Part shown: positions 48,281 through 63,863 of the stretch, piece by piece
How the letters are laid out: every line of letters starts with the position of its first letter
Position numbering within the stretch: the stretch's first letter is position 1
Source of the DNA: an uncultured Solirubrobacteraceae bacterium
Lineage (GTDB): Bacteria > Actinomycetota > Thermoleophilia > Solirubrobacterales > Solirubrobacteraceae
Assembly (NCBI GenBank): GCA_963822245.1
Contig: CAWGGR010000006.1
Span: forward strand, 144,779-208,778
DNA: 64,000 nt
Reading direction: 5' to 3'
Notes under the pieces: generated by a model
Database searches by the model: none
Told to the model about the DNA's origin: nothing
What the model saw: the letters and a program-made list of their open reading frames with translations, nothing else
Position numbers and translations under genes: made by a program

Positions 48281-50935
48281 TTGCATCGCCTGCCGATAGG
48301 CGAGCAGCGCGACGGGAACGTCGTCAACTGCAGGGTGACCTGTGAGCAGCACTCCGGGCAGCCCTGCGGACCGGCGCCGACCATCTCCCTCGCGGCCCGT
48401 GCGCGGGCGTTCGCGATCGTCGTGCTCGCATGCTCTGCCTCGCTCACCGCGCCGGGCGCCGACGCCGCCTCGGGACCGCATCGCAGCCACGCGAGCGCAC
48501 ACAGGCGCGGCCCGCGCGAAGCTTCCGGCGCGGCGATCTCCGAAGCTACCCCCCTGCTGACCGGCGGGCCTCCGCGCAACATCCAGCCGCCGGCGATCTC
48601 CGGCGAAGCGGTCCAATTCCAGGCCCTGAAGACGACGACAGGCGGATGGGAAGGCACCGCGCTGGAATACTCCTACAGCTGGAAGAGCTGCGACGCCGAG
48701 GGCGAATGCAGCGAACAGGCAGGGCCGGCGAACACGTACATGCTGAGCTCGTCCGACGTCGGCAACACGCTCCAGGTGACGGTCACGGCGAGCGACGCGG
48801 GCGGTGAAGCGCAGGCGACCTCGAGTCGCTCGGCGATCGTCCGCTCGGCATCCGGCGGCGTCGGCGTCGGCTGGGGCGAAGACTGGTTTGGAAATCTCGG
48901 CACGATCTACCGCACGGTCGACGAAGCGTCCCATGTCCCGATCGCCGAAGGACTCGGCGGGATCAAGTCGCTGGCTGCGGGTGAGAGCAGCGGCTACGCG
49001 CTGCTCGACAGCGGCGAAGCGGTCGCCTTCGGAGCGAACGGCCACGGCCAGCTCGGCGACGACAGCGAGGACCACTCCTACTTCGACGAAAAGAGCGACG
49101 TCCCCGTCGAGCAGGAACTGGGCGACGGGCAGATCGTGCCGTTGACGGGCATCCAGTCGATCTCACCCGCCGGCGACCACGCCCTCGCACTGCTCGAAAA
49201 CGGCACCGTCAAGACCTGGGGCAGCAACGGATCCGGTCAGATGGGCCGCGGCACGGGAGGCTTTGAACACGAAACGCACGAACGCACCGTGCTCGCGACG
49301 ACCGTCAGCTCGCTGAGCAGACACGCGCTCGCAGAACGAGGGCTTCCGGAAGTCGTCGCGGTCCAGGGCGCCGGCGGAGATGACTTCGCGATCCTCGCCA
49401 ACGGCGAGGTGATGGGCTGGGGCAACGACGAGTACGGCCAGACCGGCGTCGGGCCGCCCCACTATGAAGCGGACGGCACGACGATCGTCAAGAGCGAACT
49501 CTGCCACACCGAAGCGGGCTTCGAACGGTGCATCAAGGAACCTCGCCCGGTCGTGTTGGCGAACGGCGAACCGCTGCTCGGCGTGGCGGCGCTGACGGGC
49601 GGCACGGCGTCCACGTACGCGCTGCTCGGCGACGGTCAGGTGATGGCCTGGGGATCCAACGCGAACGGACAACTCGGTCGCGGCATGTCGGCGCCGGCGG
49701 GCACACACACACGCAACGCCCCGCCCGCGCCCGTCGTCGAAGCTGCAGGTGAGCCGCTGAGCGGGGTGCGCAGTGTGACAGCGGGCGACACGCACGCGCT
49801 CGCGCTGCGTGCGAACGGCGAAGTGGTCGGCTGGGGCGACGGCGAACAGGGCGAGCTCGGCAACGCGCCCGAGGAGGAATGCGGCGCGGGAGCGGGCCCC
49901 GACGACAGCGGAGCGCTGCGCCGGGGAAAGGGCGGAGCCCATCAGTGCGTCAGGTTCGCGACCCGCGTGATCGCCGCGGACGGGCTGCGCCCGGGACGCG
50001 CTCCGATCAGGGAAATCTCGGCGGGCGGCAAGTTCAACCTCGCCGTCGACAGCGCCGGGCGGGTCTACAGCTGGGGGTCCGACAGCGACAGCCAGCTCGG
50101 CGACGCCAGCACGAACAGCTCCGGCAGGGCCTCACCGAAGCTCGTCAACGAGCCCGGCCCGGTGATCCAGGCGGTGACCGGCGAGAAATTCGCGCTGACC
50201 CTGCTCCGCGAAGGGACGCCGACGGCGCCTGCGCCGCTCGCCATCCAGCGGCGCGTCGGTGCGTTCGATGTGACGTGGGGCTTTGCAGCGGAACGGCTCC
50301 TGTACCACGTCGGCAGACGGACGGAGCCGGGAGATCCGAGCGAACGCCCGGAATTCTCGCTCCAGGAAACCGGCCCACCGGAAGACGTGCTGCGCCCCGC
50401 GATCGAATTCCACAACCCCGAAGAAATCGCCGAGGAAGGCCTCGAGCTCAGCGCCGAGAGGGGCCAGTGGAGCGGCGAACGCCCGTTCACGATCTCGATC
50501 AGGTGGCAGCGCTGCCCGGCCGGCGTGAGCGAAGCCGGGCAACTGGACGAACAGTGCGAAAACCTTTCGCGCCAGACGCTCCAGCACGAAACCGGGGAGC
50601 GCTCGGAAGACGAGTACATTCCCGAAGCGGCCGACGTCGGTCACACGCTCCGCTTCCTCGTCACGATCAGAGACCAGTATGTTCCCGAAGGCGGCGGCGC
50701 GAAGGTGCGCGGCGAAGCGAGCCTCCCGTCGGAAACGACCGGCGAAGTACAGCGTGCGTCGGCCGGCGGGCGGACCGAACAGATCAAAGCGACGGCGATT
50801 CAGGAACGCCTGATCACGGCGCTCAAGGGCGAACCGCTGCGCCAGATCCCCTACGAAATCGACCTCGACCAGGGACCCGACACGCACCCGCGGATCATGC
50901 GCGCGACCCCGCTCGCCAAGGAATCGGCCGGCTAA
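48281..50935 (+). CDS. Secreted RCC1/BLIP-II-like propeller flanked by two Cys-containing Ig-like domains (start uncertain)
   Basis: WG.N..GQ.G and AG..H.LAL...G.V repeats; N- and C-terminal W..C...C...Y...DVG.TL modules. Confidence 0.85.
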
Positions 50936-53098: not shown

Positions 53099-53551
53099 CT
53101 AGGTGAGCTTGCGCGTGAACAACACGCGCGGCTCGCCCGTTGCCGTGTAGCCGGCGATCTCGCGGGCGCTGAAGCCGAGCGCACGGTGAAACGCGATCGA
53201 GCCGCGATTGTCCGCGCGCGTGATCGCCTTCAGCGATCGCGCTCCGCGCGCGTGGGCAAGGCCCTCGAAGTCCGCGTACAGCGCTCGCGCCAGCCCATCG
53301 CCACGTCGATCCTCGCGGACGGCTACGACATGGATGTAGCCGGTCCGCGTGGGACCGACGAAACCCAGCAGATATGCGAGCACGCCGCCCGCGCCGCGGA
53401 TCACGCGCGCCGTGTCGCCGAACTCGTGGACGAACAGCGCGTGATGCAGGCCGAGCACCTCGCGCTTGCCCCAGAAGTCCGTCAGCGCGGCGACGATCGC
53501 CTGCAGGTCCGCAATCGTCGCCGGCTCGGCTGCATGGGTCTCCGTCGTCAT
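53099..53551 (-). CDS. GNAT acetyltransferase
   Basis: YIHVVAVREDRRGDGLARALY, NRGSIAFHRALGF. Confidence 0.88.
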   Translation of the reverse strand: MTTETHAAEPATIADLQAIVAALTDFWGKREVLGLHHALFVHEFGDTARVIRGAGGVLAYLLGFVGPTRTGYIHVVAVREDRRGDGLARALYADFEGLAHARGARSLKAITRADNRGSIAFHRALGFSAREIAGYTATGEPRVLFTRKLT

Positions 53552-53979
53552 CCGCCGAGCAGGCCGGACACGCCGGCGCGGTTCGGGATGATGTGCGCCA
53601 GCTCGTCGATGCCCGCGAAGGCGGCATCCGCCGAGATCACAGCGCTGATCCCGGCACCGGCCGCCGATGCCGCCAGAACGGCGTCGAACGCGCCCAGGCT
53701 CTCAGAGCGCTCGAACAACGTGATGCCTTCCTCGAGACTCCGAGCGTCGGGGCTGATGAGCGGCGCGAGCAGGGCCGCATAGTCGCGCCCGAGCGCAGCC
53801 GCGTCGGCCCGGCCGCGGCGACGTGCGCGGACATGCACGAACTCCTGGATGACCTCGACCGTCGTCGTCGCCTCGAGATCACCGCGGGCGATCGCATCGA
53901 TCAGATCGCGGCACGGCCCGCGCAGCGGGTGGTCCTGCCCCTTTGCGTAGACGAGGACGGTCGTATCGAGCAGGATCAT
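53548..53979 (-). CDS. vapC: PIN-domain toxin
   Basis: MILLDTTVLVYA, EVIQEF, DAVLAA, ISAD. Confidence 0.92.
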   Translation of the reverse strand: MILLDTTVLVYAKGQDHPLRGPCRDLIDAIARGDLEATTTVEVIQEFVHVRARRRGRADAAALGRDYAALLAPLISPDARSLEEGITLFERSESLGAFDAVLAASAAGAGISAVISADAAFAGIDELAHIIPNRAGVSGLLGG

Positions 53980-54230
53980 GCGCGGCGGGCGCGCAGCGAG
54001 TCCAGCTCGGTGCGCAGCTCCTGCGGGTCGGGCACCGCCATATCCGGCGCCGCAAGCAGACGGGCGCCGGCAGCGCGACGCGTTCCGTCGGCGCTTGCCA
54101 GGCCTCGATCGATCGCCTCGCGAACGACCGTCGCGATCGACACACCCCGCTCCCGCGCGGCAGCCGAGATGCGGCGGTGGCGCTCGTCGTCGATCAGGAT
54201 CTGCAGTCGATGGTCCAAGGGCATGAGCAT
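53976..54230 (-). CDS. vapB: CopG/RHH-like antitoxin
   Basis: RLQILID...AARERGVSIATVVREAID; 4-bp overlap with vapC. Confidence 0.88.
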   Translation of the reverse strand: MLMPLDHRLQILIDDERHRRISAAARERGVSIATVVREAIDRGLASADGTRRAAGARLLAAPDMAVPDPQELRTELDSLRARRA

Positions 54231-54291
54231 ACTGTAGCATGCACCGGCTCGCGGCGCCGTCTTCGCCGCGGCCGCGCGCGCGCCCGGCTTG

Positions 54292-54304
54292 TGCGGAAAA
54301 GCAC
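54292..54304. promoter_or_regulatory. Shared 13-bp motif site 1 (TGCGGAAAAGCAC)
   Basis: Between divergent vapB and the deacetylase gene; matches TRCGGRWWWNYAC. Confidence 0.55.
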
Positions 54305-54363
54305 GGCACCGCTGCCGCGGACTACGGATCGCGTACTCGTCCCGCGTCTCTAGCTTCCTGTCG

Positions 54364-55461
54364 ATGACCGACGCCCACCACGTCCCGCCCGCCCCAACCG
54401 GCCTGTATTTCAGCCATCCGCTGTGCCTGGAGCACGATCCGTCGGCTGTTGTGCCCTCGAGCCCGGATTCACCGGAGCGCGAGATCGCGATCGAGCAGGT
54501 GCTCGAGGCCAACGACTGGCTCGGCTGGGAGCGTCGTGAGGCTCCCGCCGCCAGCGAGGAGCAGGTGCGCCTCGTCCACACTGATCGGCTCGTGCGGCAG
54601 GTCACAGATCTGGCGATGCTCGGTGGCGGCGCGATCGACGGCGACACGTACGTGGGCGAGGCTTCCTTCGGAGCGGCCCTGCACGCAGTCGGTGGCGCCT
54701 GTGAGATGGCGCGGGCGCTCCTCGACGGGGAAGCCCGTCTCGGCTTCTGCGGCGTGCGCCCCCCCGGCCATCACGCCGAAGCGGACCGCGCGATGGGGTT
54801 CTGCCTGTTCAACAACGTCGCGGTCGCCGCGCAGGTCGCGATCGCGGAGCTCGGCGTCCGCCGGGTGTTCATCCTCGACTGGGATGTGCATCACGGCAAC
54901 GGCACCGCCGAGGTGTTCCGCCGCCGCCCAGACGTCCTCTATACGAGCATCCACCAGGCGGGCCTGTTCCCGGGCACCGGGCAGCTGAGCGACGCCGGCT
55001 CGGGCCCGGGCGAGGGCTACACGATCAATCTCCCCGTCCCCGCCGGCTCAGAAGAGGATCTGTGGCTGTCGCTGATCGAGCACGTCGCCCTGCCCGCCGC
55101 GCAGGCGTTCGCACCCGAGCTGATCCTCGTGTCGGCGGGATTCGACGCGCACCGCGCCGACCCGATCGGCGGATGCCGCCTCGACTCGAGCTCGTTCGCG
55201 GAGATGGGCAGGCACGTGCGCGACCTCGCGGAGGCGCTCGACATCCCGCTGGGAATGGTGCTCGAGGGAGGCTATGAGCCGAGCGCGCTCGCGGACTGCG
55301 TGGCCGGGACGCTGCGGGCGCTCAGCGACGGCCGGCCCGCGCATTCGGCGGCGCCGGAGCCTCTGTTGACCTCCCGCGCGGCGTCCTATGTCGGGCACTA
55401 CTGGCCGCTCGAAGGCGGCCGGGTAGTTTCCCGTACCCCGTCGGCGGCTGAGGCCGGATGA
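54364..55461 (+). CDS. Zn-dependent histone deacetylase family (AcuC/AphA-like) protein
   Basis: RPPGHHA, MGFCLFNN, DWDVHHGNGT, SAGFDAH, LEGGY. Confidence 0.95.
   Translation: MTDAHHVPPAPTGLYFSHPLCLEHDPSAVVPSSPDSPEREIAIEQVLEANDWLGWERREAPAASEEQVRLVHTDRLVRQVTDLAMLGGGAIDGDTYVGEASFGAALHAVGGACEMARALLDGEARLGFCGVRPPGHHAEADRAMGFCLFNNVAVAAQVAIAELGVRRVFILDWDVHHGNGTAEVFRRRPDVLYTSIHQAGLFPGTGQLSDAGSGPGEGYTINLPVPAGSEEDLWLSLIEHVALPAAQAFAPELILVSAGFDAHRADPIGGCRLDSSSFAEMGRHVRDLAEALDIPLGMVLEGGYEPSALADCVAGTLRALSDGRPAHSAAPEPLLTSRAASYVGHYWPLEGGRVVSRTPSAAEAG
55423..55435 (+). promoter_or_regulatory. Shared 13-bp motif site 2 (GTAGTTTCCCGTA)
   Basis: 40 bp upstream of the GNAT start, inside the 3' end of the deacetylase ORF. 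Confidence 0.65.
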
Positions 55462-55474
55462 CACCCTCCCGCAC

Positions 55475-56092
55475 GTGAGCGATCCTGGCCCCATCGTGAA
55501 CGCCACCGCGATCTCCTCGCCACGCAGCACGGACGCAGCCGCGGGCTGCGAGCCGGTTGAGCTGTTGCGCCTGCGCGACGGCTCGCAGGTGACGCTGCGC
55601 CGCGCGCGCGAGGCGGATGAGCCGGGATTGCACGTGTTCCTGCATGACCTTTGCCCGGAGGCCCGTCGGCTGCGCTTCTTCAGCGCCGCGGTCGACCTCG
55701 ACGGCGCGGCGCACTCGGCGGCCGACACCGGTTCGGGCCGCTACGGGCTGATCGCCACCGACGAAACGGGCGAGATCGTTGCGCACGCGGTGTTCATCCC
55801 GCTTGACGCGACGCGCGCGGAAGTCGCGGTCGAGGTCGCAGACCACCTGCACGGCCGCGGCCTCGCCACGATCCTGATCGAGCGCCTGGCCGAGGTCGCC
55901 GAGACGCGCGGCATCACCCGCTTCGTCGCCGAGGTGCTGTGTGAGAACCGCGCGATGCTCGATGTCTTCCGGGAGGGCTTCGACGGGCGCGTCGCGCACC
56001 GTTGCGGTCCCGAGGAGAGGATCGAGTTTCTCACCTCCGGCTGGCGGCTCGCACGCGAGCGTTTCAAGCCGTTCGGCAGCAGCGAGGGGTAG
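55475..56092 (+). CDS. Stand-alone Pat-type GNAT acetyltransferase
   Basis: LRDGSQVTLRRA...RRLRFFS...AEVAVEVADHLHGRGLAT...AEVLCENRAM, as in GNAT domains of Pat-type protein acetyltransferases. Confidence 0.85.
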   Translation: MSDPGPIVNATAISSPRSTDAAAGCEPVELLRLRDGSQVTLRRAREADEPGLHVFLHDLCPEARRLRFFSAAVDLDGAAHSAADTGSGRYGLIATDETGEIVAHAVFIPLDATRAEVAVEVADHLHGRGLATILIERLAEVAETRGITRFVAEVLCENRAMLDVFREGFDGRVAHRCGPEERIEFLTSGWRLARERFKPFGSSEG

Positions 56093-56094
56093 CC

Positions 56095-57033
56095 GTGTTC
56101 GCCAAGACGATCGTCGCGTTTGACGGTTCTGAGCGGAGCCTCGAGGCGCTGCTGCTGGCCGAGGCGCTGGCCGATCCGGGCGGCGAGCTGATCGTCTGCT
56201 GTGTTCACCGCTACGACGCGCTGGCGGCGCGCATCGACCCGACCGAGCCGAGCGTCGACCGGGACGCGGCGGAGAGATCTGTGCGGGATGCGACATCGCG
56301 GTTGACCCGAGGCCTCGCCGTGACTCCCGTGCTTCTGCCCGGGGCCAACGCTTCCGCGGTATTGCAGAGGATCGCTGTCGAGCGCGACGCGGAGCTGATC
56401 GTGCTCGGCTCATCTCACCGCGGCGCGCTTGGCCGGGTGCTGATCGGCAGTGTCAGCGAGGAAACGCTGCACGGAGCGCCCTGCCCGGTCGCGGTGGCCC
56501 CGGTCGGCGCTGAGGGCACGCCGCCACGGCTCCGCCTGGCGCGAATCGCGTTCGGCTGCGACGTCGTCGAGCCGCTGCCCGGCGCGCTGGCGGCCGCGGT
56601 CGCGCTGTGCGTGCAGACGGGCGCCGCGTTGCGCGTCATCGCGGTCGCGGAGGATGCCGCGGTGCAGGATCCCGAGCGGTCGACGTTGCCTTACGCGGCA
56701 ATCGCGGCGGCGCGGCTGAGTGCGGCCGAGGACGTCGCCGGCGAGCTGCTCGCGGGCCTGCCCGAGACGATCTCGGCGAGCATCGAAGTTCGCGACGGAG
56801 CGCCGGCGCAGCAACTCCTCGAGATCTCAAACGACGTTGATCTGCTGGTGCTCGGCGCGCACTCCCGCGGCGTGCTCGGGCGGCTGATCATGGGCAGCGT
56901 CTGCGACGCGGTCGTACGAGCTGCCGCCTGCCCGGTGCTCGTGATACCCCCGCGAACGGGCGCAGATCAGGACGTGTCAGGTGCTGATCAGCCCGCGCTC
57001 GATCGCGTAGCTGACCAGCTCCGCTCGGGTTGA
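56095..57033 (+). CDS. Universal stress protein (tandem USP domains)
   Basis: IVAFDGSE, LIVLGSSHRG...GSVS...CPV; second LLVLGAHSRG...GSV...CPV. Confidence 0.93.
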   Translation: MFAKTIVAFDGSERSLEALLLAEALADPGGELIVCCVHRYDALAARIDPTEPSVDRDAAERSVRDATSRLTRGLAVTPVLLPGANASAVLQRIAVERDAELIVLGSSHRGALGRVLIGSVSEETLHGAPCPVAVAPVGAEGTPPRLRLARIAFGCDVVEPLPGALAAAVALCVQTGAALRVIAVAEDAAVQDPERSTLPYAAIAAARLSAAEDVAGELLAGLPETISASIEVRDGAPAQQLLEISNDVDLLVLGAHSRGVLGRLIMGSVCDAVVRAAACPVLVIPPRTGADQDVSGADQPALDRVADQLRSG

Positions 57034-57651
57034 GAGCCTGAGCTTCTGCTGGATGTGTGCCCTGTGCGTCTCGACCGTGCGGACCGACAGGTATAGCTGC
57101 GCCGCGATCTCGGCGTTCGTGTGCCCGAGCGCGATCAGTCGCAGCACGTCGACCTCGCGATCTGAGAGGTCATCCGGCGGTCCCGGCGGCGGCTCTGACG
57201 CGATCCGCGCGCCGAGCCTGGGGTTGAGATAGTTCTCGCCTCTGGCGGCGTTGCGGATTGCCTGCACGAGCTCGTCGTCGGCGGCCTCCTTGAGGACGTA
57301 GCCGAGCGCGCCGGCGCCCAGCGCCTCGCGGGCGAACGCCGGCTCCTGCTGCATCGTGAGGACCACGATCTGGGTCTCCGGCGACTGCTCGCGGATCACG
57401 GGGATCGCCTCGAGGCTCGAGCCACCCGGCATGTTGAGGTCGAGGACGAGAACCCTCGGATGGTGCCCGAGCACGTATCTCCTGGCGGTGTCGACGTCGC
57501 TTGCCTCGGCGACGACCTCGAAGTCACTCTCGCTCTCGAGCAGCATCTTGAGGCCGCTGCGCACGACAGCATGGTCGTCGGCGAGCACGATTCGGATCGC
57601 CTCGCCGTGTGCCGGCGTCGCCGGCGCGTCGCCTGTGTCGCCATCGCTCAC
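56977..57651 (-). CDS. Orphan NarL/FixJ-family response regulator (REC + LuxR HTH)
   Basis: LADDH, LDLNMP, VVLTM, YVLK; LSDREVDVL...GHTNAEIA..LYLSVRTVETHR; start may extend to 57711. Confidence 0.95.
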   Translation of the reverse strand: MSDGDTGDAPATPAHGEAIRIVLADDHAVVRSGLKMLLESESDFEVVAEASDVDTARRYVLGHHPRVLVLDLNMPGGSSLEAIPVIREQSPETQIVVLTMQQEPAFAREALGAGALGYVLKEAADDELVQAIRNAARGENYLNPRLGARIASEPPPGPPDDLSDREVDVLRLIALGHTNAEIAAQLYLSVRTVETHRAHIQQKLRLSTRAELVSYAIERGLIST

Positions 57652-57686
57652 CGCCGGGACGGTATCGGCTCCTGCGGCGCCAGGCA

Positions 57687-57699
57687 TGCGGGAAATTAC
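57687..57699 (-). promoter_or_regulatory. Shared 13-bp motif site 3 (GTAATTTCCCGCA on minus strand)
   Basis: 36 bp upstream of the regulator GTG; TACCGT (-10-like) lies 22 nt downstream. Confidence 0.65.
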
Positions 57700-57761
57700 G
57701 GATGTCGACACGGAGCCTCGCAGCGCCGGGGACCCGTTCCGCCGAGGGCGAGCGGCCCAGG

Positions 57762-58658
57762 CTAGGCTGCGGCCCCGCTCGTCTGCTTCGACGAGGCAGC
57801 AGCGTCATCGGCGGACCCGGGCGAGGAGGCGCGCGGCAGCACGAGCAGGGAGCTGCGTACGTGGCGCTCCAGGTAGTCGCTGGTGGTACCGAGCACGAGC
57901 CGCTTGACAGGGCCGTATCCGCGTGAGCCGACGACCAACAGGTCGAGCGCGCCGCTGAAGGTCGCGAGCTCCTCGCCTGCCAGGCCGTAGACCGCCCGTC
58001 CCTCGACGCCGGGGAGCGCGCCCATGCGCTCGTTCGCCTCCGCGACGATCAGATCCACGCTGTCACCGACCGACGGCATCATGATCCCCGTATAGGTGAT
58101 CGTCGGAATCGAGACGACTTCCAGCGCGTGAACCGTCCCCTCGATCTGCGCTGCGAGCTCGCGTGCCGCCGCGAGCGCCGCCCGGCCCTCGGGGGACTCG
58201 TTGTAGCCGACTCCGACCCGCGAGACCGCGCTCGCTCGCGCGCTGAAACCGAGGGCCGCGACCGCAACCGCACAGGAGGCACCGTTGAGTGCCGAGCGGG
58301 TGTCGTCGCCGAGCATCGCGCGACCGAGGGCGCCGTGCCTGCACGAGCCGACGACGAGCAGGTCCGCGCCCTGCTCCTCGGCCTGCTCATGCAGGCCGCG
58401 TCCGGGGCTGATCGCCTCGATACCGATGAGCTGCGCGTCCACCTGCGCGGCGTCGCGCTCCCGCTCGAGCAGCTGTTGGGCGGCGCTGCGCTCTTCTCTG
58501 ACGACGCCGGGGCTGATCGCGTGCGAGGGGCGCAGGGCGCCGCTGTAGACGTACGCGAGCGTCAGCTTCGCGTCCGGCCCCGCGAGGCGACCGGCGAGCG
58601 CGATCGCGTCACGTCCGTTGGGCCGGCCGTCGATTCCCACGAGTACGTTGTTGAACAT
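57762..58658 (-). CDS. Universal stress protein (tandem USP domains)
   Basis: MFNNVLVGIDG, LLVVGS, LLVVGSRGYGP. Confidence 0.93.
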   Translation of the reverse strand: MFNNVLVGIDGRPNGRDAIALAGRLAGPDAKLTLAYVYSGALRPSHAISPGVVREERSAAQQLLERERDAAQVDAQLIGIEAISPGRGLHEQAEEQGADLLVVGSCRHGALGRAMLGDDTRSALNGASCAVAVAALGFSARASAVSRVGVGYNESPEGRAALAAARELAAQIEGTVHALEVVSIPTITYTGIMMPSVGDSVDLIVAEANERMGALPGVEGRAVYGLAGEELATFSGALDLLVVGSRGYGPVKRLVLGTTSDYLERHVRSSLLVLPRASSPGSADDAAASSKQTSGAAA

Positions 58659-58702
58659 CACTGGCCTCCTTGTGTTTGCCCGCGCGCTGGCGCGTCGCGC
58701 GC

Positions 58703-59275
58703 TCACGTTGCGGTGATGAAGCCGCCCATATAGCCGGCGTGCTCCATCGCCCAGCCGTTCGCGTTGCTGTCGCAGGGAATCACGCAGAACCACGAGAAGC
58801 GACCTTTTTCTTTGACGACCATCTCGTAGGTGTGAATTCCCGGTTTGACGATGATGTTCACGCCGATCTCCGGCGAGGTGATGCTGTGTTCCCCTTCGTC
58901 GGTGTTGTCGATCTTCAACTCGAGCGTCTGGCCGACTTTGACGTTGAATTCGGTCTTCGTGTAGTAGTCGTGTTTCTTCCCGTCCGGGCCGAGTCGGCCT
59001 TCCGGAATGACCTTCAGGCTGATCAGCTCCGGCGCCACCCTGCTCGGGGCGCCCGCGGCGGTCGAGCTCGTCGCCGGGGGCGCCGCGCCGCTCGTGATCG
59101 TGACCGTGTTGTGTTCGCTGCTGTTGTTCAGGGCGATGATCGACATCAGCAGCGCAGCGAAGACGCCGACGCCGGCGAGCACCTCGAGCACGACCTTGCC
59201 GTCCCTTGTGACCGTCTCATCGAAGTCCGCCTGGTCGCGGGCCTCCGTCTCCTCGTCTGGCTCTGGGACATGCAT
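58703..59275 (-). CDS. Membrane-anchored cupredoxin-domain protein
   Basis: TM helix, then GEHSI and WFCVIPC...MEHAGYM copper-ligand candidates. Confidence 0.8.
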   Translation of the reverse strand: MHVPEPDEETEARDQADFDETVTRDGKVVLEVLAGVGVFAALLMSIIALNNSSEHNTVTITSGAAPPATSSTAAGAPSRVAPELISLKVIPEGRLGPDGKKHDYYTKTEFNVKVGQTLELKIDNTDEGEHSITSPEIGVNIIVKPGIHTYEMVVKEKGRFSWFCVIPCDSNANGWAMEHAGYMGGFITAT

Positions 59276-59378
59276 CTCGTCACCCGCCTTTGTTTCGTCG
59301 TGCTGCGTTCTGTTGATGCTCGACAGTCAATCGCGCGGAGCCTCAGCGGCCATCCGCGCCGGCCCGCCGGACGGGTAG

Positions 59379-59391
59379 GTGTTTATCCGCA
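59379..59391 (+). promoter_or_regulatory. Shared 13-bp motif site 4 (GTGTTTATCCGCA)
   Basis: Between divergent cupredoxin and APC permease genes. Confidence 0.55.
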
Positions 59392-59449
59392 GCCCGGCCG
59401 CCGCCGCGAACCCGCTCGATGTGTCGATTCTCCATTACGCTCGCGTGCG

Positions 59450-60883
59450 ATGAGCGCGGGCGGCGGCAACGGAGATCACCTCAAGGCAGCGCAGCTCGAC
59501 ACGGCCGACGTGACCGCCTCGACGCTCGCCAACATCGGCCCGGGGATCGACTTCTACTTCGCCTTCGGCGTGATCGCCGTGACAGCCGGTGTCGCGGCGC
59601 CGTTGACGATCCTCGCCGCCGGCGTGGCGGTCGTATTCCTCGGCTTCACGGTTGCCGCATTCACGAGGGCGGAGCCCTCGGCCGGGAGCTTCATCACCTA
59701 CATCGAGACGTCGCTGGGAGCACGTGCGGGCGTCGCCACCGCGATACTCGTCGCGGTTGGCTTCACGGTCGCGATCGCCGGGGTGTTCACGATGGCCGGC
59801 GGTATGGTCACGCTGACCCTCGCCCATTACACGTCCTGGCACCTCGCGTGGGAGCCGTTGAGCCTGCTGCTCACCGTTGCGGCGATCTGGCTGACCGCGC
59901 GCGGCGTCAGGCTGTCCACGACGACGGTGGGCGTGGCGGTGTTCGCCCAGGTCGCGGTCATGCTCCTGGTCTGCGTCGTCGTCCTCGTCGACCAGCGGGG
60001 CCACCTCTCGAGCGCGCCGTTCTCCTGGTCGCACCTCAGCGGCGGGCTCGCCGGCCTGTCGGCCGGCTTTCCGCTGGCCCTGTACATGTTCATCGGATGG
60101 GAAAACGGCCCGGCGCTCGCCGAGGAGTCCCGCGATCCCAGGCGCACCGTTCCGCGAGCGCTGTTCATATCGATCGCGATCGGCACAGCGCTGTTTGTGC
60201 TGTTCGCATATGCGACGGTGACCGGCTTCGACTACGACGTCTCCTCGATCGGGCGCTCATCGGTCCCGTTCCTGGCTGTCGCCGACCGCTACCTGGGCGG
60301 ACTTGCCGTCCTGGCCTGGATCGCCGGAGTCGTCTCCGTGCTCGCCACGCTCGTCTCAGCGGCGAACTCCCAGGCGCGGATGCTGTTTGACGGCGGCCGC
60401 TCCGGGCTCCTGCCGTCACGCCTCGCCCACCTGCAGCCGGGACCGGACACCCCGGTCAACGCGTTGCTGGTGCTGGCCGGCGGCGGACTCGGGATCATCG
60501 CGGTCTGGTGGGTGCTGCACCTGACCGGCGTGGCGACGGGATCGACCGACCCGGTCGGCCTCTACGCCGAGTGCTCGACGATGGGCACGATCGTGATCCT
60601 GTTCGTCTACCTGCTGACGACGGTCGCGCTTCCCGTGTTCATGTGGCGGCGCAACCGCCGGTCCTTCTCCGCGCTGCGCCACATCGCGATCCCGCTGATC
60701 GGCGCCCTCACGCTCGTGATTCCGTTCATCGAGCTGTGCAGGCCCGGGCAGCCCTCGCCCTACGGCGAGTTCCCGTACGTCGCGCTCGCGATCGCGCTGG
60801 CGGCGGGCGCGATCGCCTGTCTCGTCGTCCACCGCCACCCGGCGACCGGCTCGGGCGAGGGCGCCGCGTTCGCCGAATCGTGA
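59450..60883 (+). CDS. APC family amino acid/polyamine permease
   Basis: ANIGPG, PSAGSFITY, FIGWENGPALAEESRDPRRTVPRA; ~12 TM segments. Confidence 0.92.
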   Translation: MSAGGGNGDHLKAAQLDTADVTASTLANIGPGIDFYFAFGVIAVTAGVAAPLTILAAGVAVVFLGFTVAAFTRAEPSAGSFITYIETSLGARAGVATAILVAVGFTVAIAGVFTMAGGMVTLTLAHYTSWHLAWEPLSLLLTVAAIWLTARGVRLSTTTVGVAVFAQVAVMLLVCVVVLVDQRGHLSSAPFSWSHLSGGLAGLSAGFPLALYMFIGWENGPALAEESRDPRRTVPRALFISIAIGTALFVLFAYATVTGFDYDVSSIGRSSVPFLAVADRYLGGLAVLAWIAGVVSVLATLVSAANSQARMLFDGGRSGLLPSRLAHLQPGPDTPVNALLVLAGGGLGIIAVWWVLHLTGVATGSTDPVGLYAECSTMGTIVILFVYLLTTVALPVFMWRRNRRSFSALRHIAIPLIGALTLVIPFIELCRPGQPSPYGEFPYVALAIALAAGAIACLVVHRHPATGSGEGAAFAES

Positions 60884-60958
60884 GGAGGGCCGGGAAGGCG
60901 TCGCGAGCGGTCCGAGCGGGGTCTCGAGCTGTCCGTCGCGACGTGGGGGGGTCTCTGC

Positions 60959-61813
60959 TCAGACCCCGGCAGCGGCATGCCGCTCGCTTGATTGCTCCTC
61001 GGCGCCGGCGGTGTCGGCGACATCACCGCGCGGAAGGACCAGCAGCGAGCAGCGGGCGTGGCGCTCGAGGTAGCGCGATGTGCTGCTGCTCAACATGCGC
61101 TGGAGCGGGCCGTAGCCCCGTGAGCCGACGATGAGAAGGTCGAGCTCGTCACCGAACCTGGCGAGCTCTTCGCCGGCGAGACCGTAGACGGCGCGACCGT
61201 CGATGTCGGCGAGTGCGGCCATGCGGACACCGGCTTCCTTGACCATCTCCTCGATGAAGTCTCCGACCGGTACGACCATGCCGCCGAATGAGACCGGCGA
61301 GACGACTTCGAGAGCGTGGAGCTTCGCATCCGTCGATGCGGCCAGCCTGCGTGCTGCCGCCAGCGCCACCACGCTTTCGGGCGAGCCGTTGTAGGCGACG
61401 CCGACCTGGCTGATCGCGGGGTTGTGCTCCGCATAGCCGTGGGCGGCGATGGCCACCGCGCACGGTGCGCCGTTGAGAGCCGCGCGCGTGTCATCGCCGG
61501 CCATCGCTCGGCCGAAAATGCCGTGACGGCAGGACCCGACCACGATCAGATCGGCGCTCTGGCGCTCTGCCTGTTCGTGCAGCGCGCGCCCCGGGCTGAA
61601 CGAGACGACGCTGAGGAGCCCGGCGTCGCTGTCGGTGGCCGCGCGTTCGCGCTCGAGCATCTGCTGTGACTCGACGATGTCGCCGGCGATATCACCGGTG
61701 CGGGCAAAGGCGAGGGTCAGCTTCGCCTCGGCGTCGCAGAGCTGGCGGGCGAGCGCGATCGCGTCGCGGCCGGCCGGCCGGCCGTCAACTCCGACAAGCA
61801 CGTTCTTGAACAT
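60959..61813 (-). CDS. Universal stress protein (tandem USP domains), paralog of 57762-58658
   Basis: MFKNVLVGVDGRPAGRDAIALA, GDDTRAALNGAPCAVA, GSRGYGP. Confidence 0.93.
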   Translation of the reverse strand: MFKNVLVGVDGRPAGRDAIALARQLCDAEAKLTLAFARTGDIAGDIVESQQMLERERAATDSDAGLLSVVSFSPGRALHEQAERQSADLIVVGSCRHGIFGRAMAGDDTRAALNGAPCAVAIAAHGYAEHNPAISQVGVAYNGSPESVVALAAARRLAASTDAKLHALEVVSPVSFGGMVVPVGDFIEEMVKEAGVRMAALADIDGRAVYGLAGEELARFGDELDLLIVGSRGYGPLQRMLSSSTSRYLERHARCSLLVLPRGDVADTAGAEEQSSERHAAAGV

Positions 61814-61892
61814 CTTCGGGCTCCTTTGCGGGTTCGAGAGCACCGTAGGTCGCGACCGCGCGTCGATCATCCGGACACGTCACTGCAGCGGC

Positions 61893-61905
61893 TGCGGGTT
61901 TGTAC
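61893..61905. promoter_or_regulatory. Shared 13-bp motif site 5 (TGCGGGTTTGTAC)
   Basis: Between divergent USP and DUF294 genes. Confidence 0.55.
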
Positions 61906-61970
61906 TGAGCGCACGCCGCCCGCAGCCGTCGGCCGGGCTGGCGCCGTTCCGGGGGCCATACGATGGGCTT

Positions 61971-63863
61971 GTGCCCGCCGGATCGAACGAGGAGGCAGGC
62001 GCGTTCGGTGAGACGCGCTCGCCGGTTGACGTGGCCGGCTTTCTGCGCGCGCATCCGCCGTTCGACGCGCTTGAAGCGGTCGATGTCGAACGCGTCGCAG
62101 CGACGGCCGAGGTCGAGTTCTTCCTGGCCGGCTCGACCATCTTCTCGCAGAGCACAGAGCCCGTCGAGCATCTGCGCGTGGTGCGCAGCGGCGCCGTCGA
62201 GGTCCTCCTCGACGGCCGCGTCCTGGACCTGCTGGGGCCGGGTGAGCTGTTCGGCCACGCCTCGATGCTCTCGGGGCTGCCACCCGGCTTCACCGCGCGC
62301 GCACAGGAGGACACCCTCTGCTATCGCTTCCCCGAGTCGGTCGCGCGCTCGGTGCTCGCCCGGCCGGAGAGCGTCGGGTTCGTCGCGCGCTCGCTGCTGG
62401 CTATGAGCGCGGCGGAGCATGCGCGGCTCGCCGAGCACCTCGCAGTGGACCCCGCCGAGCAGCCGGTGGCGGCGCTGATACGCGGCGCGCCGGTGGTGTG
62501 CTCGCCGGAGACGACGATTCGCGACGCGGCCGTGCAGATGCGCGGCGCTCCGGCGAGCTCGATCGTGATCGATCTCGGCGACAGCCTCGGGATCGTCACC
62601 GACCGGGACCTGCGCTCGCGCGTGCTCGCGGAGGGCGTCTCCTACGATGCGCCGGTGTCGGCGGTGATGAGCGCTCCGGCATACACGGTCGCGCCGGAGC
62701 GCCTCGGCGGCGATGTCCTGCTGGAGATGCTCGACCGCGGCATCCGCCACTTCCCGGTCCTCACGGCTTCGCGCGAGGTTCTCGGTGTCGTGGAAGCGAC
62801 CGACCTGGTTGCGGTCGAGACGCTGTCCTCGTTCCATCTGCGCCGGGCGATCACGGCAGCCGGCGGCGTCGAGGAACTCGCGCGGGCGGCACGAGGGCTG
62901 CGCCCTGCCGTCATCGCTCTCCACCGTGCGCGTCTGGCCGCCGCGAGCGTCTCTGCGATCTACTCGGTCGTGGTGGACGCGCTGACGCGCCGGCTCGTTG
63001 AGCTGAGGCTCGCGCGGGCGGGGCAGCCGCCCGCTGAGTTCGCCTGGCTCGCGCTTGGCAGCCAGTCGCGGCGGGAGGCGGCACCCGGCTCTGACCTGGA
63101 CAGCGCGATCGTCTGGTACGGCGGGGTCGATGACGAGACGGCGCGCCCGTATCTGCATGCGCTCGCGAACGATGTCGCCGCGGGTCTCGAGGCGTGCGGG
63201 ATCAGGGTCGATGCGCACGGGGCAAGCGCGTCGAACGAGCTGTTCGTGCGTTCGCTCGAGTCCTGGCGGCGTGTCGCGGCCAGCTGGATCGAGCATCCCA
63301 CGCGTGAGCAGGCGCTGATGCTCGTGTCGGTGTTCGTCGACGGGCGCCCGGTGTGGGGCATCCACAGCGGGAATCCGCTGTCGGACACGTTCGCTGCTGC
63401 GCGGGCACGACCGGAGCTGCTGCACCTGCTCGCGCGGTTCGCGCTCTCTCACCGTCCACCCACGGGTTTCCTGCGGGGGCTCGTGCTCGAGCACGACGGT
63501 CAGCGCCGGGGGCGGCTGGACCTCAAGCACGGCGGGCTGCTGCCGATCGCCGACCTCGCCCGGTGGGCTGGGATGGCCGCCGGGGTGACGAGCGCCTCGA
63601 CGCTCCAGCGGCTGCGCGCGGCCGGCGACGCCGGGACGCTGCCGTCGGCGAGTGTCAGCACCCTCGAAGATGCCTTCGAGCTGTTCAGCGAGCTGCGCAT
63701 GGAGCATCAGGTTCGCCAGCTGCAGGCTGGGCGCGAGCCGGATGACCATCTCGATCCGAGCGACCTCAGCCGGCTGACGCGCGCCCATCTGAAGGAGGCA
63801 TTCCGGTCAGTCGCCGCGGTGCAGAAGCAGATCGCCGCGGAATTGAATCTGGGGGTGCGATGA
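61971..63863 (+). CDS. cNMP-binding + CBS + DUF294/DUF294_C putative nucleotidyltransferase
   Basis: HPPFD...VRSGAVE...GELFG (cNMP); GIVTDRDLR, IRHFPV (CBS); LGSQSRRE...SDLDSA (NTase); LDLKHGGLLPI. Confidence 0.92.
   Translation: MPAGSNEEAGAFGETRSPVDVAGFLRAHPPFDALEAVDVERVAATAEVEFFLAGSTIFSQSTEPVEHLRVVRSGAVEVLLDGRVLDLLGPGELFGHASMLSGLPPGFTARAQEDTLCYRFPESVARSVLARPESVGFVARSLLAMSAAEHARLAEHLAVDPAEQPVAALIRGAPVVCSPETTIRDAAVQMRGAPASSIVIDLGDSLGIVTDRDLRSRVLAEGVSYDAPVSAVMSAPAYTVAPERLGGDVLLEMLDRGIRHFPVLTASREVLGVVEATDLVAVETLSSFHLRRAITAAGGVEELARAARGLRPAVIALHRARLAAASVSAIYSVVVDALTRRLVELRLARAGQPPAEFAWLALGSQSRREAAPGSDLDSAIVWYGGVDDETARPYLHALANDVAAGLEACGIRVDAHGASASNELFVRSLESWRRVAASWIEHPTREQALMLVSVFVDGRPVWGIHSGNPLSDTFAAARARPELLHLLARFALSHRPPTGFLRGLVLEHDGQRRGRLDLKHGGLLPIADLARWAGMAAGVTSASTLQRLRAAGDAGTLPSASVSTLEDAFELFSELRMEHQVRQLQAGREPDDHLDPSDLSRLTRAHLKEAFRSVAAVQKQIAAELNLGVR

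Follow-up and report, generated by a model that had tools for sequence, protein, structure and literature searches.

A 64-kb stretch of the genome of an uncultured Solirubrobacteraceae bacterium (the window, C6:144779-208778 of a 3.44-Mb, 8-contig assembly) carries a conserved promoter box that we read, with a probability of about 75%, as the site of a phosphorylation-activated response regulator of the NarL/FixJ family with an RTVE(T/S)HRA recognition helix, and the genes behind the box as a DosRS-like regulon for hypoxia and redox stress. An earlier note on this DNA had drawn attention to a 13-bp motif, TRCGGRWWWNYAC, upstream of five promoters around a regulator gene that has no kinase beside it, and this motif is the core of a conserved box of 17-18 bp. 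The DNA word is new, and the kind of system is otherwise familiar: mycobacteria, Streptomyces, Burkholderia and others have two-component low-oxygen regulons rich in universal stress proteins (USPs). The order Solirubrobacterales comprises soil actinobacteria that are abundant and have almost never been cultured. To our knowledge nothing has been described about the regulation of persistence in this order, and a literature search for the box or the system in Thermoleophilia or Solirubrobacter returned nothing relevant.

The clustering of the motif is the first piece of evidence. All five sites of the earlier note (54292, 57687 and 61893 on the plus strand, 55423 and 59379 on the minus strand) are exact matches at those coordinates and on those strands. 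Dinucleotide-preserving shuffles of the window gave an expectation of 0.07 matches, and at least five matches appeared in 0 of 100 shuffles. The whole assembly holds seven matches, five of which lie within a single 8 kb of the window. Taken together with the shuffles, this places the clustering far beyond chance despite a pattern that was fitted post hoc. The sites lie 36-104 nt from gene starts (36-105 bp had been reported), as measured with starts anchored on homology; a rudimentary in-house gene finder placed starts wrongly in this sequence of 70% GC and served as a rough guide only. Two checks named in the earlier note, frequency of the motif in coding DNA and conservation in orthologous promoters, both turned out well for it, with just two further exact matches across 3.44 Mb and with the box kept upstream of orthologous genes in more than 100 Solirubrobacterales loci. 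Its weaker copy at 58672 did not hold up: this match scores below 6 bits with the cross-genome matrix described below and lies over the Shine-Dalgarno sequence of a USP gene (USP2), 14 nt before the ATG.

Alignment of 99 non-redundant sites from loci around orthologues of the regulator confined the information to 18 columns, aTCCGTAgWWnyCCGCAr, with flat flanks; columns 5-17, reverse-complemented, give the 13-mer. Two readings of the box suggest themselves, a pair of YCCGYA pentamers at a distance of 10 bp and an imperfect TSCG-N8-CGSA palindrome round an asymmetric A/T-rich core. For scoring, an 18-bp matrix was built from other genomes only, leaving this genome out, and by this matrix boxes 3 (23.8 bits) and 5 (21.8 bits) of the window rank first and second in the 3.44-Mb genome. 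At 18 bits or more there are 8 matches genome-wide, against 1-2 in third-order Markov simulations. Around regulator orthologues a 22-column matrix finds 141 matches of at least 12 bits in 1.31 Mb, or about 108 per Mb, only one of the 141 falling inside an annotated gene, and among the best 60 matches listed for this genome about 35 reach 12 bits in 3.44 Mb, or about 7 per Mb once roughly 12 island matches are excluded. Pfam confirmed the gene content (deacetylase family, GNAT, three tandem USPs, REC plus GerE regulator, cupredoxin, APC permease and cNMP-CBS-DUF294), in agreement with the earlier note. The boxes and the genes around them are as follows.

54291..54308, minus strand: box 1a, TGCCGTGCTTTTCCGCAC, containing site 1 of the earlier note as an exact 13-mer; 9.6 bits; at 21 bp from box 1b, it is the distal of the two reversed boxes in the deacetylase promoter.
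54312..54329, minus strand: box 1b, ATCCGTAGTCCGCGGCAG; 13.3 bits; reversed and proximal, 21 nt from the putative -10; overlooked by the earlier note, in which it figures as CGGATCG.
54351..54356, plus strand: putative -10 of the deacetylase promoter, TAGCTT, 7 nt before the ATG and so placed for a leaderless transcript, as judged from sequence.
54364..55461, plus strand: histone-deacetylase family gene of the acetoin-utilisation type (Pfam PF00850, 3.4e-87).
55419..55436, plus strand: box 2, CCGGGTAGTTTCCCGTAC, an exact 13-mer; 12.5 bits; within the deacetylase gene at its 3' end, oriented towards the GNAT gene.
55475..56092, plus strand: GNAT acetyltransferase gene (Pfam PF00583); start uncertain, with GTG 55497 possible.
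56095..57033, plus strand: tandem USP1 gene (Pfam PF00582, two domains).
56977..57651, minus strand: gene for the NarL/FixJ-family response regulator (REC and GerE helix-turn-helix (HTH), Pfam), with helix SVRTVETHRAHI and without an adjacent kinase.
57659..57664, minus strand: predicted -10 of the regulator promoter, TACCGT, 7 nt before the GTG (leaderless), from de novo motif discovery on 78 orthologous upstream regions.
57686..57703, minus strand: box 3, ATCCGTAATTTCCCGCAT, a putative autoregulatory box; 23.8 bits, the best match in the genome.
57762..58658, minus strand: tandem USP2 gene (Pfam), preceded by the cupredoxin gene and followed by the regulator gene, all on the same strand.
58703..59275, minus strand: gene for a membrane-anchored cupredoxin-like protein (Pfam PF13473).
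59375..59392, plus strand: box 4, GTAGGTGTTTATCCGCAG; 16.3 bits; in the divergent cupredoxin/permease region, 45 nt from the permease -10.
59437..59442, plus strand: putative -10 of the permease promoter, TACGCT, 7 nt before the ATG, likewise judged from its position.
59450..60883, plus strand: APC-family amino-acid permease gene (Pfam PF13520).
60959..61813, minus strand: tandem USP3 gene (Pfam).
61842..61847, minus strand: predicted -10 of the USP3 promoter, TACGGT, aligned with the cTAGCAT-type hexamers of 33 orthologous USP promoters.
61870..61874, minus strand: CCGGA element at -39..-35, with 22 nt between it and the -10 downstream, conserved in orthologous USP promoters; probably a proximal half-site.
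61892..61909, minus strand: box 5, CTCAGTACAAACCCGCAG, of the USP3 promoter; 21.8 bits; 96 nt from the ATG, with 45 nt from the A of CCGCA to the -10.
61971..63863, plus strand: cNMP-binding/CBS/DUF294 nucleotidyltransferase gene (Pfam), divergent from USP3, with its own predicted -10, TACGAT, at 61959-61964.

Conservation across the order provides the second line of evidence. Close relatives of the regulator (70-90% identity) come only from uncultured Solirubrobacteraceae and Solirubrobacterales metagenome-assembled genomes, mostly from soil, and a relative was present in 40 of 40 related genomes searched. About 100 loci around regulator orthologues were collected, and the 200 nt upstream of each orthologue were scored; a box was counted when it exceeded the 95th percentile reached by random 200-nt windows of these loci. 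The SQR-like Pyr_redox flavoprotein, whose gene lies outside the window in this genome, carried the box most consistently (88%, n = 25). High values were also found for cupredoxin orthologues, boxed in 80% of cases (4/5) at -105..-120 and reversed as in the window, the paralogous regulator discussed below (79%, 11 of 14 loci, at a fixed position near -74), and the USP3-type (71%, n = 7) and USP2-type (70%, n = 44) orthologues. Lower values were found for alcohol dehydrogenase (ADH; 50%), the regulator itself (38%, n = 101), GNAT (38%, with box-like matches at -56/-65 in 3/8), the GAF kinase (37%) and the deacetylase. The last reached 17%, and the deacetylase-promoter box at site 1 is lineage-specific on this account. 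Most of the 100 loci have the genes for the regulator, USP, SQR-like flavoprotein, GAF kinase and paralogue close together, and the order USP, then response regulator, is found again in many of them.

The third line of evidence is the rigid geometry of the promoters. In 33 of 35 USP orthologues the box has the same orientation and lies 96 +/- 3 nt before the ATG, and the layout in these 33 is box-N17-19-CCGGA-N22-cTAGCAT (a TANNNT -10)-short leader-AAGGAGA-ATGTTCAAGAAC. De novo expectation maximization on 78 regulator upstream regions returned cGaTACcTTC first, with the start codon 7 nt on, as expected of a leaderless promoter, and when the orthologous promoters were anchored on this -10, about 20 of 52 showed a box 22 nt ahead of it. 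The same preference for a few distances emerged when 119 distinct strong boxes were aligned on the A of CCGCA: a TANNNT hexamer lies 44-46 nt downstream in 55 and 22 nt downstream in 12, and in 18 the box is reversed with the hexamer 21-22 nt from its other end. The background is about 1 per offset, and 71% of the 119 boxes stand at one of these three fixed positions, which put the box centre near -66, or near -43 in either orientation. Within the window, box 3 has its CCGCA 22 nt from TACCGT, giving a centre near -43, and the 21-nt spacing of box 1b to TAGCTT is that of the reversed class. Box 2 is followed by CCGGA 18 nt on (55454-55458) and, after another 22 nt, by a weak GATCCT. Because the boxes stand at fixed upstream positions, no -35 is seen and the box itself occupies the -35 region, the arrangement as read from sequence is the signature of an activator rather than of a repressor or a sigma-factor element. 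The autoregulation proposed in the earlier note is supported in that a box stands at an activator position before the regulator's own gene. Control of the cNMP-CBS-DUF294 gene by box 5 appears doubtful because the box is 49 nt from the predicted -10 of that gene, a non-canonical distance.

These geometries also account for the similar elements that had been described 21-23 nt downstream of three sites. They do not form one shared element and belong to three different things. CGATACCGT is the predicted -10 (TACCGT) of the regulator's leaderless promoter, CGGATCG after site 1 is part of box 1b (54312-54329), and the GGATGA(C/T) that follows sites 2 and 5 represents the CCGGA element conserved at -39..-35 in promoters of the USP type. 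Tandem boxes as a general rule were considered and set aside, a second box 22 bp upstream being found in only about 5 of 120 strong boxes. In many genes of the surrounding island a TANNNT hexamer precedes the start codon by 6-7 nt, in the window at 54351-54364, 57651-57664, 59437-59452 and 61959-61973 and outside it at C6:209848, 248710 and 245834, which suggests leaderless mRNAs; the USP genes have instead a leader of about 22 nt with AAGGAGA.

Which protein reads the box is addressed by the regulators themselves. The window regulator belongs to the NarL/FixJ family, with a LuxR-type HTH, by its Pfam matches (PF00072, 7e-24; PF00196, 2e-18). Its receiver is complete in alignment with VraR (DD pair, Asp in LDLNMP, Thr and Lys), and its matches in the PDB include VraR, NarL, DesR, DevR and FixJ. 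A six-frame scan found the RTVE.HRA helix in just two proteins of the genome, the window regulator and a paralogue at C6:245834-246520, which lies 44 kb away and is 55% identical to it; the paralogue helix is SPRTVESHRANI, and the DNA-contacting core R-T-V-E-x-H-R-A is identical in the two. At C2:753273-756164, outside the window, lies a third, more distant paralogue with 48% identity and a different recognition helix, and the kinase beside it matches only the second GAF domain and kinase core of the DosS/DosT-like protein described next.

The earlier note had placed the partner kinase elsewhere in the genome, and no HisKA_3 kinase was found within the 64-kb window. Convergent with the first paralogue, at C6:246494-248200 and thus outside the window, lies a kinase with two GAF domains, HisKA_3 and HATPase in Pfam. 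It is the only full GAF-GAF-HisKA_3-HATPase protein (DosS/DosT type) of the genome and is encoded 44 kb from the window regulator. Its GAF-A matches the DosT haem domain (2vzw) at 1.6e-42, and the DosT/DevS haem domains as a set at 1e-38 to 1e-42. The kinase stretch 'faGHPvM' aligns with 'fpPYHPpM' of DevS, which we take to hold the proximal His. The protein is a predicted haem-GAF sensor of the DosS/DosT type, and the redox or oxygen signal suggested in the earlier note is consistent with such a sensor. Some lineages further removed within Solirubrobacterales have a GAF kinase convergent with the orthologue of the window regulator itself (loci L092, L096, L097, L103, L119 and L120). The kinase-linked paralogues form a separate, strongly supported clade.

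At the level of DNA the closest likeness is to FixJ of Sinorhizobium meliloti, whose recognition helix and type of DNA site are both matched here. The FixJ helix SPRTVEVHRANV (PDB 1x3u) is identical at 10 of 12 positions with the paralogue and at 8 of 12 with the window regulator. For FixJ, PMC4999443 cites the SELEX (systematic evolution of ligands by exponential enrichment) classes GTAGTTTCCC (class I) and GTAMGTAG, and the fixK site TAAGTAATTTCCCTTA. The class I core given in the earlier note is correct by that text, and box 2 contains an exact copy of it. Box 3, as TCCGTAATTTCCCGCA, agrees with the fixK site at 12 of 16 positions, the mismatches being AT-to-GC changes in the outer tetramers, which are TAAG/CTTA in FixJ boxes and GC-rich TCCG/CGCA here. 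FixJ is also described as protecting two regions, -69..-44 and -57..-31, of a promoter that it activates in an oxygen-responsive manner (PMC4999443). The likeness ends at the sensor, the targets and descent. FixL is a haem-PAS protein, whereas the kinase here is of the haem-GAF (DosS/DosT) type. FixJ targets nifA and fixK, whereas the predicted targets here are stress genes in an actinobacterial host. In PDB searches FixJ comes behind VraR, NarL, DesR and RcsB, and over their whole length the regulators resemble FixJ no more than VraR, NarL or RcsB, so they are not FixJ orthologues by this measure.

At the level of the sensor and the gene set, the likeness is to DevR/DosR with DevS/DosT, the dormancy system of Mycobacterium tuberculosis that responds to hypoxia, NO or CO, and to OsdR/OsdK of Streptomyces coelicolor. 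These likewise have a GAF-GAF-HisKA_3 kinase beside a NarL-family regulator, and the kinase here has the full GAF-GAF-HisKA_3-HATPase domain set of DevS/DosT, with haem binding predicted. DosR and OsdR likewise have a USP-rich target set with ADH and redox enzymes and are autoregulated, as is predicted here. The boxes cluster near the regulator as OsdR sites do (PMC5069765). The published OsdR/DevR box, however, is a palindrome, AGGGCCGATCGGCCCT, or of GGGAC type, of 16-20 bp (PMC5069765), and differs from aTCCGTAgWWnyCCGCAr. A reading of the box as a DosR half-site (TSGGGA...) was rejected on this ground, the second half being absent, and PolR of Microlunatus, whose partner is a DevS-like kinase, was likewise set aside since it binds GTTCAC direct repeats unrelated to the box. 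Other differences concern the regulator. DevR is not its closest solved relative, and the recognition helix of DevR is of the KTVKNY type, here RTVExHRA. In DosR systems the regulator adjoins its kinase, which is true here of the paralogue and of some distant orthologues and not of the window regulator. There are moreover two paralogous regulators, one of them without a kinase, and the promoter spacing is rigid and the genes largely leaderless. The system thus looks FixJ-like at the DNA and DosS/DosT-like at the sensor and would be a strict member of neither family, because the Dev box and kinase adjacency fail for DosR, and the FixL partner and orthology fail for FixJ.

Brought together, conservation, spacing grammar and the haem-GAF kinase support the interpretation of these genes as a redox or oxygen regulon. 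In the mechanism that we propose, the kinase would sense low oxygen, nitric oxide or carbon monoxide (NO/CO), or a redox change and phosphorylate one or both regulators. The regulators would then bind boxes at fixed positions, with the centre either at about -66 with a CCGGA half-site at -39..-35 or, whichever way the box faces, at about -43, and would bring RNA polymerase to TANNNT promoters that lack a -35. In the window they would act on USP3, on the cupredoxin-USP2 unit, the permease or both, on the deacetylase-GNAT-USP1 operon and, by positive autoregulation, on the regulator's own gene. Outside it the predicted targets are DUF1918, a pair of SQR-like flavoproteins, a Zn-ADH and the region of the kinase and the paralogue.

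Several observations weigh against this interpretation or limit its reach. The box is asymmetric, and at the proximal position it is used either way round, an unusual behaviour for a site made of direct repeats. Among relatives it is missing from 62% of the promoters of the regulator and from 83% of those of the deacetylase. There is no excess of matches at moderate scores: at 12 bits or more the genome has 43 matches and simulated genomes 41-51, and 11 of the 43 fall in a 54-kb island at C6:198-252 kb. The regulon would therefore be small and largely local, and its membership past about 10 sites is uncertain because of the missing excess. SsrB and EsrB have a TVExHR helix as well, which makes the helix match supportive and not diagnostic of the DNA word. 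Lastly, the window regulator and its paralogue cannot be separated as reader of the box.

This last point leads to the rival that deserves most attention, in which the kinase-linked paralogue (C6:245834-246520) alone reads the box and the window regulator is merely one of its targets, perhaps with another specificity or as a phosphate sink or antagonist. The paralogue helix is the nearer to FixJ (10/12 against 8/12), the paralogue is paired with the sole full haem-GAF kinase, 11 of 14 loci show the box in its own promoter, fixed at -74, and its clade is distinct and strongly supported. Yet the R-T-V-E-x-H-R-A core is the same in both regulators, and it is the window-regulator clade that is most tightly linked to boxed USP genes, a USP gene followed by the response regulator in many loci. 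The window regulator also retains the acidic pair, phospho-Asp, Thr and Lys of a working receiver, and orthologues of it adjoin a GAF kinase in the six loci named above. We regard an exclusive role for the paralogue as unlikely.

A transcription factor unrelated to either regulator and encoded elsewhere could also bind the box, the regulator gene being just one target, since the regulator and the box are linked here by sequence and a few strong boxes lie far from the island (C2:407651 and C3:233680, for example). However, the box and the regulator occur within a few kb of each other in about 100 genomes, the box matches published FixJ sites while FixJ and both regulators have a helix in common, and the box is not a Crp/Fnr- or WhiB-type word; such a factor seems quite improbable. 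Hardly credible is that the motif belongs to an alternative sigma factor as an extended -35. The very rigid spacing to a -10-like hexamer would suit such an element, but the spacings are 22 and 45 nt from the -10 instead of 16-18, there are reversed boxes at 21-22 nt and tandem copies 22 bp apart, and a reversed element, or one at -66, could not be read by a sigma factor. Spacing and orientation likewise rule out the box as a SigF/SigB or ECF -35.

With a phosphorylated NarL/FixJ-family regulator preferred as the reader of the box, a wider and decidedly speculative scenario can be outlined. A haem-GAF sensor might have been coupled to a FixJ-type DNA-reading head across Solirubrobacterales and the regulator then duplicated, leaving one kinase to feed two paralogues that share one box. 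The kinase-linked copy might switch on the kinase-less, self-activating copy in a feed-forward or bistable arrangement that locks in or amplifies a dormancy-like state, and the -66/-43 grammar on -35-less, mostly leaderless promoters might be the lineage's general persistence switch in soil. Regardless of this scenario, the analysis provides a predicted cis-element (an 18-bp matrix with three fixed promoter geometries), two candidate regulators and a predicted haem sensor kinase. It also provides candidate targets, namely the tandem USPs, the SQR-like flavoprotein, DUF1918, the cupredoxin, the deacetylase/acetyltransferase pair, the ADH and the permease. The predicted system suggests that a hypoxia island of the DosR type can be rewired to a DNA word resembling that of FixJ, which bears on how regulator specificity and sensor modules recombine.

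The predicted regulon extends past the five promoters first described. A little beyond the window, boxes also precede genes for DUF1918 (C6:209774, 21.6 bits), the Zn-ADH (C6:228848), the two SQR-like flavoproteins (C6:248635 and C6:250384), a small open reading frame (ORF) beside the kinase (C6:248296) and the paralogue (C6:245759). The island encodes in addition a 2-oxoacid:ferredoxin oxidoreductase subunit, an Fe-S flavoprotein and a cytochrome b.

A number of smaller features were noted along the way. In the window, the convergent USP1 and regulator genes overlap at their 3' ends by 57 nt (56977-57033). At 53548-54224 on the minus strand a ParG/VapB-like antitoxin gene, with a weak Pfam match of 4.8e-4 that is under the curated cutoff, is followed by a possible PIN/VapC-like ORF; this pair is divergent from the deacetylase promoter, and the region with boxes 1a and 1b is common to both. 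Two box-like sequences on the plus strand, ACGAGTACATTCCCGAAG at 50610-50627 (15.0 bits) and ACCAGTATGTTCCCGAAG at 50673-50690 (13.6 bits), lie 63 bp apart in a plus-strand ORF at 48281-50935, and this pair was set aside as probably a repeated coding motif and not a regulatory one, given its place within a coding ORF. Outside the window, the two paralogous Pyr_redox_2 flavoproteins (C6:248710-249861 and 250484-251716) are 68% identical and have a WPLPLYE-type motif, each gene stands behind a box, and a single-domain USP gene lies between them. At the DUF1918 promoter (C6:209774-209804) and one flavoprotein promoter (250384-250414) the box is followed 7-8 nt on by an inverted partial copy, GTAGTTCTCCGCA...GCGGAACTAC, forming a composite of about 31 bp.

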